64,000 nucleotides of DNA from Yuukianura sp. NJ FZ-2021 (Eukaryota): positions 868,001-932,000 of the forward strand of contig CM102286.1 in NCBI GenBank assembly GCA_046563655.1, in the 5' to 3' direction. Made by a program: the position numbers and the translations under genes. The notes under the pieces were generated by a model, which saw only the letters and a program-made list of their open reading frames with translations, had not been told where the DNA came from and made no database searches. Within the stretch, counting starts at the first letter, position 1. The number at the start of each line of letters is the position of its first letter. Shown in pieces: positions 1 to 35,252 of this stretch.

Positions 1-3000
1 ACTTCTTCGACTTCATCTTGAGAGGAAGTCGTTGTCGTTGTGGTAGTCGTCTTCGATGAACCTGTTCCATCTCTCGCACCACTATTTGAAGTTCCGCTTT
101 GACCTAAAATGACAGAATTCAATGAACTTCCTGATTCACCGGTTGAAGTTGAGCTTACAACAATGCTTTTAAGCTTACCCTCATCCGCTGACTCAGAAGC
201 TGTTGAATTCGAAGCCTCCTCTTCCTCAAATGCACCTCCATTGCCAAACTCGCCAGTATTATTTTTTGAGACTTTTTTCGAACTCCAAGTTTTCTTTCCG
301 CCGCTCCGTTTCCACCCTTTCTTTCCGCCAGAGGTCGTAGTAGTTTTCGTTGTTTTTCGAGTTTTACTGACACCGTTTGGCGAGTCATTTTGAAGCGTTT
401 CGGTGGTGACATTTTTTTGTGTAGAATTAGTTCCATTCCCGTCGTCAGTAGTTTCAACACCAAGGGCTCGTTTCTTCCGCCGTTTGGTAGGTGGCGCCTG
501 TGTAGTGCCGGCACCGGTTTCGTTTGTTCCGTTTGATTTGTTCACCAGGCCAGAAACTCCTCTTCCCAAATTACTAACCACAGATACAATTGGCTTTTCT
601 TCTTTTGTATTTGGCTGTTCATCTTCATCATGACTGTGGACGTGGTCAGGATGTCCATGTCGATACTTTCGTGTTTTAGATTTTGACTTATGCTTCCAAT
701 TTTTCTTCCCGTTTCCACGGCTTTCTGCATCTTCTTCCTCTTGAGAGTAGTATGCGTCATCATCGTCATCATTAGCAGTGGTGTCTTTATTTTTGTGGCC
801 AAACTTCCCGCCCTTACCCCAACCTTTGCCATGAGTTTTGGAGTTACTACCACCTTTTCCGCCACCGGTTTTGGTTGTTGTGGTGTTCGTTATGGTCACT
901 TCCTCAAAATCTTCCTCTTCAATTTCCGTTTCAGTTGTTTTTGTTCCAACCTTCTTTTTTAAATTACTTCCACTTGTTTCTTTACCATCTTCAGTTGCGG
1001 ATTCTGTATTAGTAATTCCGGTTTTCTTTGTTTTACTTTGACTGTTTCCGCTGGAATTCCCGCTGTCGTCCGCACCTTGGGTACTAGAACCGCTTTGTCC
1101 TTTTTTGGTTTTTGATGATCTGCTAATCTGTGTTGACTCAGATTCTTCCTCCTCTTCTACGTTAGTTGTACTTTTTCGTTTGGATTTGCTTAGGTTGGCC
1201 TGGTTATCTTCGGCCTCTCCTCCATCTGCAGATGTAGGCTTTGAGCCCTTGCCACTGTCACTTCCTGACTTACCTTTCGTGGTCGAGGAAGAGGATTTCC
1301 TCACAGAAGTTTCGGATTCTTCTTCCTCTTCTGTTCTAACTTCAGTTAATTTAGATTTTAATGTCGAAGTGTCCTTGCCCCCGTCATTTGGATTAAACTT
1401 CCCTTTTTTAGTTGATGATGTCGTGTTCGTTACCGAAGTTGATTCCTCCTCTTCCTGAACAACTACCTCCGTGATTTTTTTTGGCTTTGGTGTGGGCTTT
1501 CTGCCGTCATCTGGACCTGACTTTCCTTTCTTTGTGGACGAGGTAGTGTTTGTTACTGAAGTCGATTCCTCCGCTTCCTCAACAATGACCTCATTGACCT
1601 TTTTAGGCTTTGTAGTTGGTTTCTTGCCGTCATCAGGACCTGGCTTCCCTTTTTTAGTTGATGATGTCGTGTTCGTTACTGAAGTTGATTCCTCTTCTTC
1701 CTCAACAACGACCTCAGTAACTTTTTTAGGCTTCGGTGTGGGTTTTGTTGCGTCATCAGGACCTGACTTTCCTTTCTTAGTGGATGAAGTCGAGTTTGTT
1801 ACCGAAATGAATTCCTCTTCCTCAAGAACGACCTCACTGACTTTTTTAGGCTTTGTGGTGGGTTTTGTGCCGTCATCAGGACGTGACTTTCCTTTCTTAG
1901 TGGATGATGTCGAGTTTGTTACTGAAGTTGATTCCTCCTCTTCCTGAACGACGACTTCAGTGACTTTTTTAGGCTTTGGCGTGGGCTTTGTGCCGTCATC
2001 TGGACCTGACTTTCCTTTCTTTGTGGACGATGTCGTGTTTGTTACCGAAGTTGATTCCTCCTCTTCCTCAACAATGACCTCGGTGACCTTTTTAGGTTTT
2101 GTGGTGGGTTTGGTGCCGTCATCTGGACCTGACTTTCCTTTCTTAGTAGATGATGTCGTGTTTGTTACGGAAGTCGATTCCTCCTCCTCAACCGCGACCT
2201 CAGTGACTTGTTTAGGCTTTGGCGTAGGTTTTGTGGCATCATCTGGACCTGACTTTCCTTTCTTAGTAGATGATGTCGTGTTTGTTACGGAAGTCGATTC
2301 CTCCGCTTCTTCAACAATGACCTCGGTGACCTTTTTAGGTTTTGTGGTGGGTTTGGCGCCGTCATCTGGACCTGACTTTCCTTTCCTAGTAGATGATGTC
2401 GTGTTTGTGACCGAAGTTGATTCCTCCTCTTCCTCAACAACGACCTCAGTGACTTGTTTAGGCTTTGACGTAGGTTTTGTGCCGTCATCTGGACCTGACT
2501 TTCCTTTCTTAGTTGATGATGTCGTGTTTGTTACGGAAGTCGATTCCTCCTCTTCCTCAACCGCGACCTCAGTGACTTGTTTAGGCTTTGACGTAGGGCT
2601 TGTGCCGTTATCTGGACCTGACTTTCCTTTCTTAGTAGATGATGTCGTGTTTGTTACGGAAGTCGATTCCTCCTCTTCTTCCTCAACCACGACCTCAGTG
2701 ACTTGTTTAGGCTTTGGCGTAGGTTTTGTGCCGTCATCTGGACCTGACTTTCCTTTCTTAGTAGATGATGTCGTGTTTGTTACGGAAGTCGATTCCTCCT
2801 CCTCAACCGCGACCTCAGTGACTTGTTTAGGCTTTGGCGTAGGTTTTGTGCCGTCATCTGGACCTGACTTTCCTTTCTTAGTAGATGATGTCGTGTTTGT
2901 TACGGAAGTCGATTCCTCCTCTTCTTCCTCAACAACGACCTCAGTGACTTGTTTAGGCTTTGGCGTAGGTTTTGTGCCGTCATCTGGACCTGACTTTCCT

Positions 3001-6000
3001 TTCGTTGTGGACGATGTCGTGTTTGTTACTGAAGTCGATTCCTCTGCTTCCTCAACAACGACTTCAGTGACTTGTTTAGGCTTTGACGTTTGTTTTGTGC
3101 CGTCATCTGGACCTGACTTTCCTTTCTTAGTAGATGATGTCGTGTTTGTGAACGAAGTTGATTCCTCCTCTTCCTCAACAACGACCTCAGTGACTTGTTT
3201 AGGTTTTGACGTAGGTTTTGTGCCGTCATCTGGACCTGACTTTCCTTTCTTAGTAGATGATGTCGTGTTTGTTACGGAAGTCGATTCCTCCTCCTCAACC
3301 GCGACCTCAGTGACTTGTTTAGGCTTTGGCGTAGGTTTTGTGCCGTCATCTGGACCTGACTTTCCTTTCTTAGTAGATGATGTCGTGTTTGTTACGGAAG
3401 TCGATTCCTCCTCCTCAACCGCGACCTCAGTGACTTGTTTAGGCTTTGGCGTAGGTTTTGTGGCATCATCTGGACCTGACTTTCCTTTCTTAGTAGATGA
3501 TGTCGTGTTTGTTACGGAAGTCGATTCCTCCGCTTCCTCAACAATTACCTCAGTGACCTTTTTAGGCTTCGTGGTGGGTTTCGTACCGTCATCAGGACCT
3601 GACTTCCCTTTCTTAGTTGACGTGGAGTTGGTTACAATGGTAAGGGATTCCTCCTCAGTTGCGACTTCAGTAGCCTTGCTTTTGGGTTTAGCAGTTGGCT
3701 TACCGCCGTTTTCATCATCGGATTTCCCCTTTTTTCGGGAGGATGTGGAGTTTGTTAACATAACAAATTGCTCTTCTTCCTCTTCCACGACTTCGGTCAA
3801 TTTAGTTTCGGAATTTGAACCTGGTTTTCCGACAGCTCCGCTCTTGCTAGAAGACGTTTTTGAGCTTGAGCTGGATTCCTCTTCAACTGTTTCTTCCGTT
3901 GTCGTGGCGGTGCCTGTTTTGCGAGTTTTGCCACTTCCGGTAGCTCCGCCCTTGCTCGAAGAAGTTTTAGAACTTGAGCTTGACTCTTCTTCGACTACCT
4001 CTTCAGTTTTCGTTACGGATCCTGCTTTGCCAGTTTGGCCACCTTTACTGCTTCCGGTAGCTCCGCCCTTGCTCGAGGATGTTTTTGAACTGGAACTTGA
4101 CTCTTCAACTACTTCTTCTTCTGTTGTTTTCGTTACGGTACCAGCTTTACCGTTTCCAGATGTTTTGTCGGTTTTGCCGCCTCCGGTAGCTCCGCTCTTG
4201 CTAGAAGACGTTTTTGAGCTTGAGCTGAATTCCTCTTCAACTATTTCTTCCGTTGTCGTGGCGGTGCCAGTTTTGCGGTTTTTGCCGCCTCCGGTAGCTC
4301 CGCTCTTGCTAGAAGACGTTTTTGAGCTTGAGCTGGATTCCTCTTCAACTATTTCTTCCGTTGTCGTGGCGGTGCCTGTTTTGCGGGTTTTGCCACTTCC
4401 TGTAGCTCCGCCTTTGCTTGAAGAAGTTTTAGAACTTGAGCTTGACTCTTCTTCGACTACCTCTTCAGTTTTCGTTACGGATCCTGCTTTGCCAGTTTGG
4501 CCACCTTTACTGCTTCCGGTAGCTCCGCCCTTGCTCGAGGATGTTTTTGAACTGGAACTTGACTCTTCAACTACTTCTTCTTCTGTTGTTTTCGTTACGG
4601 TACCAGCTTTACCGTTTCCAGATGTTTTGTCGGTTTTGCCGCCTCCGGTAGCTCCGCTCTTGCTAGAAGACGTTTTTGAGCTTGAGCTGGATTCCTCTTC
4701 AACTATTTCTTCCGTTGTCGTGGCAGTGCCAGTTTTGCGGTTTTTGCCGCCTCCGGTAGCTCCGCTCTTGCTAGAAGACGTTTTTGAGCTTGAGCTGGAT
4801 TCCTCTTCAACTGTTTCTTCCGTTGTCGTGGCGGTGCCTGTTTTGCGAGTTTTGCCACTTCCGGTAGCTCCGCCCTTGCTCGAAGAAGTTTTAGAACTTG
4901 AGCTTGACTCTTCTTCGACTACCTCTTCAGTTTTCGTTACGGATCCTGCTTTGCCAGTTTGGCCACCTTTACTGCTTCCGGTAGCTCCGCCCTTGCTCGA
5001 GGATGTTTTTGAACTGGAACTTGACTCTTCAACTACTTCTTCTTCTGTTGTTTTCGTTACGGTACCAGCTTTACCGTTTCCAGATGTTTTGTCGGTTTTG
5101 CCGCCTCCGGTAGCTCCGCTCTTGCTAGAAGACGTTTTTGAGCTTGAGCTGAATTCCTCTTCAACTATTTCTTCCGTTGTCGTGGCGGTGCCAGTTTTGC
5201 GGTTTTTGCCGCCTCCGGTAGCTCCGCTCTTGCTAGAAGACGTTTTTGAGCTTGAGCTGGATTCCTCTTCAACTATTTCTTCCGTTGTCGTGGCGGTGCC
5301 TGTTTTGCGGGTTTTGCCACTTCCTGTAGCTCCGCCTTTGCTTGAAGAAGTTTTAGAACTTGAGCTTGACTCTTCTTCGACTACCTCTTCAGTTTTCGTT
5401 ACGGATCCTGCTTTGCCAGTTTGGCCACCTTTACTGCTTCCGGTAGCTCCGCCCTTGCTCGAGGATGTTTTTGAACTGGAACTTGACTCTTCAACTACTT
5501 CTTCTTCTGTTGTTTTCGTTACGGTACCAGCTTTACCGTTTCCAGATGTTTTGTCGGTTTTGCCGCCTCCGGTAGCTCCGCTCTTGCTAGAAGACGTTTT
5601 TGAGCTTGAGCTGGATTCCTCTTCAACTATTTCTTCCGTTGTCGTGGCAGTGCCAGTTTTGCGGTTTTTGCCGCCTCCGGTAGCTCCGCTCTTGCTAGAA
5701 GACGTTTTTGAGCTTGAGCTGGATTCCTCTTCAACTGTTTCTTCCGTTGTCGTGGCGGTGCCTGTTTTGCGGGTTTTGCCACTTCCGGTAGCTCCGCCCT
5801 TGCTCGAAGAAGTTTTAGAACTTGAGCTTGACTCTTCTTCGACTACCTCTTCAGTTTTCGTTACGGATCCTGCTTTGCCAGTTTGGCCACCTTTGCTGCT
5901 TCCGGTAGCTCCGCCCTTGCTCGAGGATGTTTTTGAACTGGAAGTTGACTCTTCAACTACTTCTTCTTCTGTTGTTTTCGTTAGGGTACCAGCTTTACCG

Positions 6001-6814
6001 TTTCCAGATGTTTTGTCGGTTTTGCCGCCTCCGGTAGCTCCGCTCTTGCTAGAAGACGTTTTTGAGCTTGAGCTGGATTCCTCTTCAACTATTTCTTCCG
6101 TTGTCGTGGCGGTGCCAGTTTTGCGGGTTTTGCCACTTCCTGTAGCTCCGCCTTTGCTCGAAGAAGTTTTAGAACTTGAGCTTGACTCTTGTTCGACTAC
6201 ATCTTCTGTTGTCGTTACGGATCCTGCTTTGCCGGTCTGGCTACCTTTACCGCTTCCGGTAGCTCCGCCCTTGCTCGAAGACGTTTTTGAACTGGAACTT
6301 GACTGTTCAACTACTTCTTCAGTTGTGGTGACGGAGCCAGTTTTGCCAGGTTTGCCACTTCCGGTACCGCCTCTCTTGCTCGACGAAGTTTTCGAGCTTG
6401 AACTTGACTCTTCCTCAACTTCCTCTTCAGTAGTCGTCGTTGTAGTCGTTTTCTTCGAACCAGTTCCGCTTCCACCTTCTTCTTTATCGGTTGCAGCGCC
6501 ATCTGATGCTGATGACCCAGAACCACTCTTCTGTCCAGATTTTTTTTTCCCAGTCTTTCCGGATCCCGATTTCTTGCTGCTGTGGCTACTGCTGCTCTCT
6601 TCGATTTCCTCTTCCTCAACTACGGTTGTCTCCGTTTCTGTTACATTTGTACGTTTCCCACCTCCTGCTTTATCGTTAGTACGGTTTCCAAGTACAACTA
6701 TCTCTACTGCTTGAATAAATCTGCCAGCCATTTTGTTTGAAAAATTCCCAACTTTTGGCTGGGGCTTTGGCTTGTTCGTTTCAGCCTTTTCGACCCCTTT
6801 GCCTTTTTTCTTTT
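1..6814 (-). CDS. Exon 2 (3'-incomplete) of a giant secreted mucin/glue-like repetitive protein, total length at least 2295 aa
   Basis: Acceptor tttcag| at 6815/6814 joins exon 1 in phase 1, giving EKKKGKGVEKAETNKPKPQPKVGNFSNKMAGRFIQAVEIVVLGNRT... The same frame reads ...SSKTTTTTTTTSSQDEVEE at the window edge. The ORF track lists no terminated ORF in this frame, consistent with no stop. Composition is dominated by S/T/E/K/G. Confidence 0.9.
1390..3720 (-). repeat. Coding tandem array A, about 19 units of 120-126 bp
   Basis: A unit translates as TEVAVEEEESTSVTNTTSSTKKGKSGPDDGTKPTPKPKQV. Length differences are in-frame changes in the Glu run, and units degenerate at both ends. Confidence 0.93.
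3834..6430 (-). repeat. Coding tandem array B, about 23 units of 108-129 bp in 462-bp tetramers and a 924-bp octamer
   Basis: Units such as TGSGKTRKTGTATTTEETVEEESSSSSKTSSSKSGA. Diagnostic variants recur at 924-bp spacing (gaattc at 4227 and 5151; tggcag at 4721 and 5645; cttcaactgt at 3881 and 4805). Confidence 0.93.
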
Positions 6815-6931
6815 CTGAAATTTATATTCAAATTAATTCCATTAAAACCTTCCTAATAAAGAGAGCTTAAGTTGCCCATTTTGATTTCTAAAATTTGAGA
6901 ATTTTTGCAACGAAAATTTTGAATATCTTAC
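6815..6931 (-). other. 117-nt GT-AG intron (phase 1)
   Basis: Donor gtaaga at 6931, acceptor tttcag at 6815, AT-rich interior; removal keeps the reading frame. Confidence 0.85.
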
Positions 6932-7004
6932 CAGATCCAGGACCTGCAGCAATTGTCCAAGTCGCCAATAAAATTACACAAGAAATTGCAAATTTCCAGT
7001 GCAT
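6932..7004 (-). CDS. Exon 1: signal peptide of the repetitive secreted protein
   Basis: ATG at 7004 gives MHWKFAISCVILLATWTIAAGPGS (basic n-region, hydrophobic core, small-residue cleavage region), ending G|gtaaga. Confidence 0.88.
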
Positions 7005-29994: not shown

Positions 29995-30007
29995 AGGTCA
30001 TTGACCT
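29995..30007. promoter_or_regulatory. Perfect IR1 palindrome AGGTCAtTGACCT (EcR/USP consensus element)
   Basis: Exact consensus, with the palindrome extending to aaAGGTCAtTGACCTtt; CAAGGTCA at 30054. Confidence 0.55.
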
Positions 30008-32394
30008 TTCGGAAGTGAGTTGTGCACAGAAAGTGTCGACTTTTTGATTGAAGCAAGGTCACAGAGGGCGGGAAATTGTAAATTAAATTTCATTAATCGT
30101 TAAACCGGAATAATAAACTTCAAGTCCAGTTTCAACCTAGTGGAAAATCGACTTCAAAAGTATTTAACGCCTCAAAGGCTTTCATTCAACGTGCAGCTTA
30201 ACGTCAAACAGAAAATAAATCTCGTCATCCAAATTCAAAATTTTGAATTTTGACCAACCACTTCTGCTCCCGCGTCCACAAAAACATCAAAAGCAAAACT
30301 ATTTGTCTCCAACTTCTTTACGGCTAACTTTCAAAAACAAACTTTGTTAAACGGAATTTCAATCAAATTCTTGTTTTTTGAAAATCAGGATTAGTTCTGC
30401 ACATGCTCACTTCATACATAAGCTTTGCTTAATCCTACTATAAGTCCAGTGATAAAGTCATCAAATGTAAGCGAAAGTCAATTTGCTCTGCGCATGCCCA
30501 CTTGCATAGTTTTTGGTTAAATGAAAATGAGGACTTTGGGTTTTAAGCTTTTTTGAAACACGAATATTAGCTTTTCCGTGACATTGAATTTGTGATAGGC
30601 GGAGGCGCGATAGAAAATGGAGGGAAATTTTGAATTTTCCTTCGGCCTTTGGCATGTCCTTTCCGTTTGACTAAATTCAAAAAGCTTAAGCTTTGCTGCT
30701 TGTCGTGTGCCCGACTTCTGCTTAAAGATGGCACGCGACCGACTAAAGTAGCGGAAGAGTCACTCCCTGTTAACAGGCGCTTTCGTTTTTTCTTTAAATG
30801 CGCGCCTAAAAGTGAGACGTTTTTAGCACTTTATTATTTCCATGACACACTTTTGCATTGATAAGGGTGAAAACGAGAAAAATGACACGGACGAAAAGTT
30901 AACGTTCAAATTCGGACTGACCGTATAATGATGTCTATGTTTTTTCAAAAGATTAGAAAAGCTTGCGCCCATAAAATTCAATTTCACTGCGCATGCCGAA
31001 TGTCTTTTCCGCAATCTGATCAAAATTAATCAAAAATCTTGTAGAACTTGCAGCAGTTCCATGTACTAAAAGAAAACGTTTTTTTTTTGTTGAAAGATTT
31101 TGGTTTTGACTTTGACAAAACTGGAATTGAAAAACAATTTCAGTTTTTATGTTTTGAAAACTGCATTTTTGCCCTAAAGATTGAAGAAAAACAGCTTCTG
31201 TTTTGCATAGTTTTCAACCGATCAGGAATTGAAAAGTCGTTTTTTTGTGTCGTACGACAGTGGTGCGTGGTGACTACTCTTCTGGTTTTCGATATGCCCA
31301 GCTATGGAATATTCTAATATGTCTAAATACGGGTTTAAGACCTTGTCAAATGTCAAACGCATAAACCTTCGAGTGACCCATCCAATGTTGACATTTCTAA
31401 CAATTTCTTGTTTCTGCAAAAGGAATGTGGACGAACTACCTTAGAAAGGAAAGGCATTAATCGAATCCAAATATTGTGATGGCGGGAATCCATACTTTAT
31501 TCCATAATTAACTATTGATATTGTTACCAACTCCTACACACTTTATTGGAAGAGTCATCGATTTCAAATTTAAGTGCCAAAACTATTCCCACACCTACAA
31601 CCATTACAGTTGCCATTTTGATTTAATAAGTATGTACAATTCCACCCACGATTCACCTTACCCCAGTTTGCCAAGGTCATGTGATTCGTTTTCCATTAGG
31701 TATAAATGTCAGTTAACACTTTAAGCCTACTTAACTAATATTTAACGTAATTAAAACGTTTAATGAAATCATAGTGGCGGTAATTTCTTAAATATTTAAT
31801 TCATAGTCTCAGCTTGCCTCAATTAACAAAATCAAAGTTCGCGGGAATGGGAGAATTGAGAATTTGAAATTTTCATCGTTGCGTCAGCGGTTCGCCCTCT
31901 TCTTTGTTCGCTATCTTCTCACAGATTCGACTCAACGTTAAATTAAAGTTAATCAGTTTAATTTTAATTACAATTAACTAACTTTTGAAGACGAAAATGA
32001 ATCTGAACTCGGTTTTTGTGTGCAGTCGCAGTTAAACCCACATGAGTTCATCTTGTCTTCTCGCCGGTCATAATAGTAGTACCTCATACGCACACTCCGG
32101 GCCGGCGTCCGGGCTCTGCCAGGTTTGAGATGTTATTTTTACTAATTGAAGTTAATTAGTTTAGTTTAAACAACAATTGACTAAGTTTTTCAGATGAATA
32201 TGTATCCGAATTCGGTTTTTACACCTAGTCATCGTTATTCTCTGCTCAGTTCTCTCTTATTCTTGTTTCTGGTTTGGTTTCAGGAGGGGGCCGTGGCGGA
32301 AGGAGGATTGGAGGGTAGAGGATCGTCTCTGTACAGCAGTCGTCCCATTCTACCGTTGACAGTACGCCAAGTAACATCTCAGCCGAACATCGTT

Positions 32395-35152: not shown

Positions 35153-35252
35153 NNNNNNNNNNNNNNNNNNNNNNNNNNNNNNNNNNNNNNNNNNNNNNNN
35201 NNNNNNNNNNNNNNNNNNNNNNNNNNNNNNNNNNNNNNNNNNNNNNNNNNNN
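35153..35252. other. Assembly gap (100 N)
   Basis: Run of exactly 100 N, typical of an unsized scaffold join. Confidence 0.99.

Follow-up and report, generated by a model that had tools for sequence, protein, structure and literature searches.

Arthropod genomes contain many fast-evolving, lineage-specific secreted repeat proteins, which are often missed by automatic annotation. The gene described here belongs to this ordinary kind, in an unusual polyampholyte form. It lies on the minus strand at the beginning of a 64,000-nucleotide stretch of the genome of the springtail Yuukianura sp. NJ FZ-2021 (assembly GCA_046563655.1, contig CM102286.1, positions 868,001 to 932,000); this whole stretch is referred to as the window, and coordinates are those of the window. 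The closest described systems can be grouped as follows: (i) lepidopteran sericins, with small signal exons, one large exon that holds over 70 % of the CDS and Ser-rich repeats (PMC12962854); (ii) Sgs glue genes of flies, which have a phase-1 intron and encode a signal peptide and disordered repeats, rich in Thr, in which Lys/Arg or Asp/Glu are scattered and which turn over rapidly (PMC6352337); (iii) heavy-chain fibroins (H-fibroins) of caddisflies and moths, in which a brief first exon (36-48 bp in caddisflies) is separated by one short intron (61-1,656 bp) from a second exon that is giant and repetitive (PMC10387566); and (iv) velvet-worm slime proteins, in which alternating patches of positive and negative residues are proposed to drive assembly, one component having 13.4 % Glu and 14.4 % Lys (PMC9218773).

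The minus strand of the window carries a real protein-coding gene with at least two exons. Exon 1 (6932..7004, minus strand, 73 nt) starts with an ATG at 7004, reads MHWKFAISCVILLATWTIAAGPGS plus one base and ends in phase 1. It is followed by an intron of 117 nt (6815..6931), with a donor (G/GTAAG) at 6931 and an acceptor (TTTCAG/) ending at 6815, so that exon 2 begins at 6814. The join 6932/6814 is in phase 1 and puts translation back exactly into a long frame of the same strand (3..6821), which is open for 2,273 codons, stop to stop in the standard code, runs off the window start and begins about 180 bases downstream of the ATG at 7004. Splicing is required, because read-through of the intron from exon 1 meets a stop after about 14 codons, and because a stop immediately upstream of 6821 closes the long frame. 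Translation of the spliced exons gives 2,295 or more residues, the frame not having ended at the window edge; exon 2 accounts for 6,814 of its 6,887 visible coding bases. A stop in the minus frame, which an earlier note on this stretch had named as an outcome that would speak against the gene, was not found: there are 0 stops in the 2,295 spliced residues. The same note had claimed a signal-peptide exon spliced to an exon of at least 6.8 kb, and this is what the 73-nt exon, the GT..AG phase-1 intron and the frame open from 6814 to the window edge amount to.

Four regions can be distinguished in exon 2, all on the minus strand: (i) a non-repeat N-terminal region (6393..6814); (ii) repeat array A, with 23 units (3753..6392); (iii) repeat array B, with 20 units (1410..3734); and (iv) a non-repeat, or rather degenerate-repeat, tail of 469 codons (1..1409), open at the window edge. 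In the peptide MHWKFAISCVILLATWTIAAGPGS, a short basic head is followed by an uncharged hydrophobic core of 16 residues and then by small residues ahead of the likely cut site, which is how secretory signal peptides are classically built. It is the sole stretch of 19 residues with a Kyte-Doolittle mean above 1.0 in the whole visible product; no further hydrophobic stretch and no membrane anchor is present in the visible chain. The G+C content of the gene region is 42-50 %, whereas the next 5 kb have 32-38 % and the average for 7-64 kb is 36 %.

A small signal exon joined to a giant repeat exon had been likened beforehand to the architecture of insect silk and glue genes, and the likeness is borne out by the descriptions of H-fibroin (PMC10387566), sericin (PMC12962854) and Sgs genes (PMC6352337). 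The exon of 73 nt, the intron of 117 nt and the exon of at least 6,814 nt follow the H-fibroin plan (PMC10387566). In the sericins of Bombyx mori and Actias luna, the signal peptide likewise lies on one or more small 5' exons, and one giant exon contains nearly all of the coding sequence (PMC12962854). Drosophila Sgs1 and Sgs3 share with the springtail gene a phase-1 intron near the signal peptide, followed by one repeat exon. But while the Sgs intron, at its conserved position, interrupts the signal peptide (PMC6352337), the phase-1 intron here falls at codon 25, where the predicted signal peptide has just ended.

Biased repeats stay open easily, as is shown by the plus-strand frame antisense to the gene (1948..6714), which is also open for 1,588 codons, and for this reason evidence of coding was sought outside the repeats. 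In the tail, the minus frame (3..1409) has 0 stops in 469 codons, as opposed to 8, 24, 21, 12 and 51 stops in the other five frames. Regarding the signal exon, the other 56.9 kb of the window were scanned on both strands for ATG frames that have a hydrophobic core of the signal type and, after it, a GTRAG donor, and only 3 were found in these 113.8 kb of background. It is therefore improbable (roughly 0.002 by our arithmetic) that such an exon should lie by chance within 200 bases of the start of the frame, with both strand and phase correct.

Further evidence comes from four public DNA runs, which belong to two samples and two studies; their Logan contigs were aligned to positions 1..1396 and reach past position 1 of the window. 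Both length differences found in these runs are in frame for the minus-strand gene (+3 nt and -75 nt): three of the four runs have 3 extra bases behind position 33, and one run lacks 75 bases at 101-177. Among the 40 base differences listed (14 further ones lie outside the list), 16 are synonymous, 24 are replacements and none is nonsense in the minus frame. The synonymous share among the listed differences is thus 40 %, versus 22.6 % expected for random changes, with a crude ratio of replacement to synonymous polymorphism (pN/pS) of about 0.44. This polymorphism points to a coding sequence that evolves fast under mild purifying selection.

The locus might instead be a repeat array that expanded recently or is decaying, that has no function and little or no expression, and whose frame is open mainly since low-complexity repeats rarely make stops; this is in our opinion quite improbable. 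Such an origin would agree with the lack of relatives in any search, with very recent growth (super-repeats 98-100 % identical), with the many replacement differences between runs (24 of the 40 listed) and with the 1,588 open codons of the antisense frame. Nevertheless, it would leave unaccounted for about 610 non-repeat codons that are also open, with 0 stops, a signal-peptide exon in the correct phase, two of two indels in frame, the lack of nonsense changes among the listed differences, the synonymous excess and a block grammar kept in diverged units.

The strand has to be settled separately. Differences among eleven B units of 41 residues are distributed over the codon positions as 174/107/619, with an excess at third positions, and synonymous and replacement differences among repeat copies number 502/275 in the minus frame and 488/301 in the antisense frame. 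Hence, this substitution test is coding-like but blind to strand, because the antisense frame has the same third positions, and it is on the grounds of the signal exon and of the flanks outside the repeats that the strand is assigned. A default bacterial-style list of open reading frames (ORFs) shows a plus-strand frame of 1,584 residues (1960..6714), the antisense mirror of the gene and a decoy for readers of an ORF track. The earlier note had called the gene absent from that track. It is true that the minus frame is unlisted; nonetheless, its absence is due to a listing rule that omits frames running off the window and not to biology. Coding by the plus strand, through the frame of 1,588 codons (1948..6714), is hardly credible: the default ORF caller displays it and its substitution pattern resembles that of the minus frame, the third codon positions being shared, but it closes within the repeats at both ends, every frame of the plus strand meets 8-24 stops within bases 1-1,409, and it offers neither a signal peptide nor a start context, its product being a Phe/Val/Asp/Ser string that mirrors the minus-strand codons.

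Array A consists of 23 units of 35-43 residues, each with an acidic block (EE[VIT]VEEE), then SSSSSKTSSSK and then a Gly/Thr/Lys block, as in the unit TTTEEIVEEE-SSSSSKTSSSK-SGATGGGKNRKTGTA. At a higher level, these units form a super-repeat of 154 residues (462 nt; 5.5 copies, 96 % matches), and, among the five super-repeats that are complete, four share 98-100 % identity. Super-repeats 2 and 4 are 100 % identical, and super-repeats 1 and 3 are 99.1 % identical. This pattern of identity points to either a very recent 924-nt duplication or an assembly effect. Array B consists of 20 units of 40-42 residues (123 nt, 18.1 copies and 87 % matches according to TRF), each formed by KKGKSGPDDGTKPTPKPKQ, then VTEVxVEEEE (VTEVAVEEEE, for example) and then STSVTNTTSST; identical units recur about ten units apart. 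Every B unit has one N-[ST]-T sequon in the same register (16 NTT and 4 NST), which is kept despite the change of the middle residue.

The two arrays and the degenerate ends follow one and the same grammar, that is, acidic, then hydroxyl, then basic. The whole chain has 50 acidic blocks. Of the 49 intervals, 3 were passed over because of their length, and in 45 of the other 46 the Ser centre lies ahead of the Lys/Arg centre, a count that includes the degenerate N- and C-terminal units and in which most intervals are recent copies and non-independent. The product has about 45 repeats, 23 A units and 20 B units among them, which agrees with the earlier estimate of about 40 repeats with acidic, Ser/Thr and basic blocks. 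Furthermore, when aligned by hhalign, the profiles of the A and the B units match over 25 columns (E 5e-4, probability 31 %, 48 % identity), a hint that both arrays may descend from one ancestral unit.

The spliced product is made up mainly of Ser (18.2 %), Thr (17.4 %), Lys (13.6 %), Glu (12.4 %) and Gly (11.7 %), with 3.7 % Ala and 3.4 % Pro. Ser and Thr together (S+T) represent 35.8 % of the mature visible chain, which contains 36 N-x-S/T sequons, 0 Cys and 19 aromatic residues, 12 of these in the tail. As had been noticed in a partial translation, the repeats (1,655 residues) lack Cys and have almost no aromatic residues (0 Trp, 0 Tyr and 5 Phe). Array A has 43.2 % S+T, 15.5 % Gly, 0 Cys and 3 Phe; array B has 32.3 % S+T, 8.4 % Pro, 0 Cys and 2 Phe. 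The fraction of charged residues (FCR) is 0.307 and the net charge per residue (NCPR) is -0.006. Opposite charges are segregated clearly beyond what the composition alone produces: kappa is 0.367 versus 0.164+-0.010 in 100 shuffles (z 19.5), and it is separately significant in array A (z 10.8), array B (z 13.1) and the tail (z 11.5). The term block polyampholyte, under which the product was initially presented, is in consequence a fair description at the scale of 5-10 residues.

As regards composition and probable behaviour, the product comes nearest to glue and coating proteins of the sericin or Sgs type, though with several differences. Sericins have, like the product here, long hydrophilic Ser(/Thr)-rich arrays with acidic and/or basic residues, two repeat types being possible in one exon; they also share the rapid turnover of repeats and the poor handling by automatic annotation (PMC12962854). 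In A. luna, however, the groups of sericins are mainly acidic or mainly basic, whereas in the springtail protein acidic and basic residues are balanced within every unit (PMC12962854). Moreover, in the 43 clear repeats and the rest of the chain, Ser amounts to 18.2 %, with Thr, Lys and Glu nearly as abundant, and no sequence similarity to any protein was found.

The Sgs proteins resemble the product in their disordered Thr/Ser-rich repeats with regularly spaced Lys, in their length (up to about 2,245 residues) and in the fast divergence of repeat number and sequence (PMC6352337). They differ from it as follows: (i) Sgs1 has 12-18 % Pro and 40-46 % Thr, compared with the 3.4 % and 17.4 % given above; (ii) the C-terminal part of Sgs proteins is conserved and serves to retrieve the family (Sgs1/3/7/8/Eig71Ee), and the whole glue is described as Cys-rich (10 % in Sgs4, 12-14 % in Sgs7 and Sgs8), as opposed to the visible mature chain without Cys (PMC6352337); and (iii) strong acidic blocks, regular here, are not a regular feature of the Sgs1/3 repeats. 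As for velvet-worm slime, among its secreted, disordered panarthropod material proteins the one component mentioned above is close to the springtail product in its content of Glu and Lys (12.4 % and 13.6 % here), but slime proteins have terminal Cys and form disulfide-linked complexes (PMC9218773). They also belong to a different phylum and have a different repeat design, with no sequence relation found.

Heavy-chain fibroins are marked by (SX)nE phospho-motifs in caddisflies or Gly/Ala crystalline repeats in moths, and by conserved N- and C-termini with a C-terminal Cys. Here, there are no Gly/Ala crystalline repeats and no (SX)nE motifs, the product is predicted to be disordered and hydrophilic, and neither Pfam nor the search with the N-terminal 161 residues revealed similarity to the conserved fibroin N-terminus. 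The silk (fibroin) reading put forward in the earlier note is not supported, in view of Ala and Gly (3.7 % and 11.7 %) and the lack of a repeat of the crystalline type. Springtails are not known to have a silk gland.

The analogy with phosphoserine-based aquatic adhesives, also proposed in the earlier note, was considered as well. According to this explanation, the product would be a cement in which the Ser runs are phosphorylated and in which phosphoserine and Glu would form complex coacervates with the Lys blocks and metal ions, as in caddisfly silk or sandcastle-worm cement. Indeed, 24 runs of at least four Ser adjoin Glu blocks, each of them being then followed by a Lys block, the chain is net neutral and charge-segregated, and the His-rich and Gly/Lys/aromatic patches of the tail resemble those of some adhesive proteins. 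Such a cement is nonetheless rather improbable. The S-x-[DE] motif is the consensus of the casein kinase of the secretory pathway, and only 6 such sites occur among 417 Ser; the acidic residues lie upstream of the Ser runs and not downstream; and the (SX)nE motif that defines the caddisfly element (PMC10387566) occurs 0 times. The motif counts thus give the analogy no support.

The non-repeat ends of the visible chain were studied apart. After the signal peptide, the N-terminal head has 140 non-repeat residues with a Lys/Pro-rich stretch, then NKMAGRFIQAVEIVVLGN, a string already pointed out in the earlier note and present in the translation, and then two or three degenerate units of the acidic/Ser/basic type. 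NKMAGRFIQAVEIVVLGN is the only hydrophobic patch of the visible mature chain. AlphaFold2 (AF2) predicted for the N-terminal fragment one low-confidence helix (residues 26-42; mean predicted local distance difference test score, pLDDT, 52.7) and no folded domain, and for the tail no secondary structure (mean pLDDT 41.6); both runs were made with a single sequence, which makes them weak evidence on disorder.

The tail (1..1409) contains several degenerate units and three distinctive patches. Within 603-845 (minus strand) are found a patch of Gly, Lys and aromatic residues (Gly/Lys/Trp/Phe/His), GKGWGKGGKFGHKNK, five consecutive Asp that precede the only two Tyr, which are adjacent, and the His-rich string RHGHPDHVHSH, with 5 His in 11 residues; this region could be a metal-binding or surface-binding end piece. 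At 468-482 (minus strand), RRKKR is the sole match to R-x-[KR]-R in 2,295 residues. It agrees with the furin-type consensus and is a candidate cleavage site that could release the last part of the protein. The visible tail ends in a Thr run and a new acidic block, with the frame open.

This open end brings in another explanation, according to which the visible part is the stalk of an anchored or domain-bearing mucin, whose C-terminus beyond the window has a transmembrane segment, chitin-binding (peritrophin) domains, a Cys-knot or some other known module; the protein would then be assigned to an established family, for example the surface mucins or the mucins of the peritrophic matrix. The frame open at the window edge, the contigs of other runs that extend past position 1 and the last visible residues, which begin another Thr run and acidic block and so imply that more protein follows, agree with it, as do the stalk-like Ser/Thr repeats with N-glycan sequons. 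We consider it unlikely, albeit the strongest of the competing explanations, given that Pfam and the Protein Data Bank (PDB) reveal no domain in the 2,295 visible residues, that the visible mature part lacks Cys and that its N-terminus lacks assemblies of the VWD type.

Other assignments to known classes were tried and rejected. Gel-forming mucins are defined by N-terminal VWD/C8/TIL assemblies and a C-terminal cystine knot. The product gave 0 Pfam families (E <= 1), has no such N-terminal assemblies and is devoid of Cys in its visible mature part. A peritrophin or invertebrate intestinal mucin was rejected on the basis of the visible chain, in which Pfam found no CBM14 and which has 0 Cys. 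Lastly, neither a desiccation protein of the late embryogenesis abundant (LEA) type nor a Gly-rich springtail antifreeze protein corresponds to a sequence with no Pfam match, only 11.7 % Gly and no predicted helices in the tail.

Searches for relatives gave negative results throughout. For the frame of 2,273 residues, Pfam gave 0 families at E <= 1, and no PDB sequence matched the protein. A phmmer search with the 469-residue tail against 1.84 billion representative proteins gave 0 matches at E <= 0.001. Word-index searches gave no relatives for tail residues 1980-2273 or for the whole frame among proteins of 1,250-3,978 residues, nor for the N-terminal 161 residues among proteins of 283-2,000 residues. 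Two look-ups in the ESM Atlas (recognition 713 and 686) yielded no usable match. The homologue search with the non-repeat parts that had been suggested at the outset was thus carried out at both ends, with the word index for the N-terminal 161 residues and with phmmer for the tail, and the description of the protein as lineage-specific is upheld by the Pfam, PDB, word-index, phmmer and ESM Atlas searches alike. Judging from sequence searches of its visible part, the gene is an orphan with no detectable relatives, with the proviso that the low-complexity and composition filters of homologue searches may mask relatives that consist of repeats only.

Taking all this into account, we find it somewhat more probable than its opposite that the product is a secreted, disordered, glycosylated polyampholyte which would form a hydrated gel, coat or glue through reversible contacts between Glu blocks and Lys blocks. 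The protein would enter the secretory pathway by means of a cleaved N-terminal signal peptide. Glycosylation in the Golgi, on the Ser/Thr blocks and on the single N-x-T sequon of each B unit, would give an extended and strongly hydrated chain. The alternating Glu and Lys blocks would then allow chains to bind each other, or charged surfaces, by many weak and reversible electrostatic contacts, and the secreted product may thus be a viscous gel, a coating or a glue. Cohesion would be non-covalent, because no Cys occurs in the visible mature part, unless the C-terminus beyond the window adds a cross-linking domain. In function, such a protein would be nearest to moth sericins and to the glue and mucin-type Sgs proteins of flies, and not to fibre-forming silk. 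By analogy with these systems, a glue-, mucin- or sericin-like reading appears reasonable.

Several observations weigh against this gel-, coat- or glue-forming polyampholyte. Firstly, its low Pro content (3.4 % overall and 0.2 % in array A) is unlike that of classical mucin or Sgs repeats. A Ser/Thr-rich composition of the mucin type does occur, with S+T of at least 40 % in 854 of 2,174 windows of 100 residues, but 0 of these 2,174 windows also reach 5 % Pro, the threshold used for a canonical mucin (Pro/Thr/Ser, PTS), and a canonical mucin is therefore not supported. Secondly, the sequence charge decoration (SCD), a long-range charge measure, does not differ from that of shuffled sequences, the blocks being short-range only and regularly alternating. 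Thirdly, the 3' end of the gene, its stop codon and the C-terminus of the protein lie beyond position 1, where a C-terminal anchor, a chitin-binding domain or a Cys-knot is possible. Fourthly, the near-identical super-repeats (98-100 %) could partly be an assembly effect of hard repeats, in which case the unit counts are perhaps off. Finally, the substitution counts among repeat copies are, as described above, similar in the minus and antisense frames.

Regarding the surroundings of the gene, a paralogue within the window was looked for and rejected: tblastn against 7,100-64,000 gave only matches with E >= 0.61 (at 30,125-30,466), blastn gave nothing, and the translated minus-strand frame of 30,000-30,600 has stops. 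The 56 stop-to-stop frames of at least 90 residues in 7,000-64,000 were searched with Pfam except for two frames across a run of N, and the remaining 54 gave 0 matches; Rfam and tRNA scans of the window gave nothing. The approximately 57 kb upstream of the gene have, in consequence, no coding feature recognisable by Pfam, Rfam or tRNA scans. In this region there are G+C-richer islands (0.43-0.51) at about 22.1-22.5, 23.5-23.8, 32.1-32.9 and 33.4-33.8 kb, which might be small exons or repeats, as well as an assembly gap of 100 N at 35,153-35,252.

A literature search found, among the papers listed, no springtail-specific work on mucins, adhesives or spermatophore proteomes, which is not proof of its absence. 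It would be a more daring proposal, and one to which we attach a rather low probability, that the protein is the main component of a springtail material not yet described, such as the stalk or droplet of a spermatophore, an egg coat or a body-surface glue, in the form of a single-chain, "self-complexing" polyampholyte glue. Its cohesion would arise purely from about 50 alternating micro-blocks of Glu and Lys with glycosylated Ser/Thr spacers. Such a glue would have no cysteine, almost no aromatic residues and no phosphoserine motifs, and its grammar, from acidic through hydroxyl to basic, would persist in both repeat families despite their divergence.

Provided that a secretory gland expresses it, the gene would offer (i) a first molecular handle on a springtail secretion; and (ii) a clean, natural repeat polymer, charge-balanced and free of cysteine, for bio-inspired gels and glues. 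Its tidy design as a polyampholyte would interest materials scientists if the protein turned out to be secreted in abundance.

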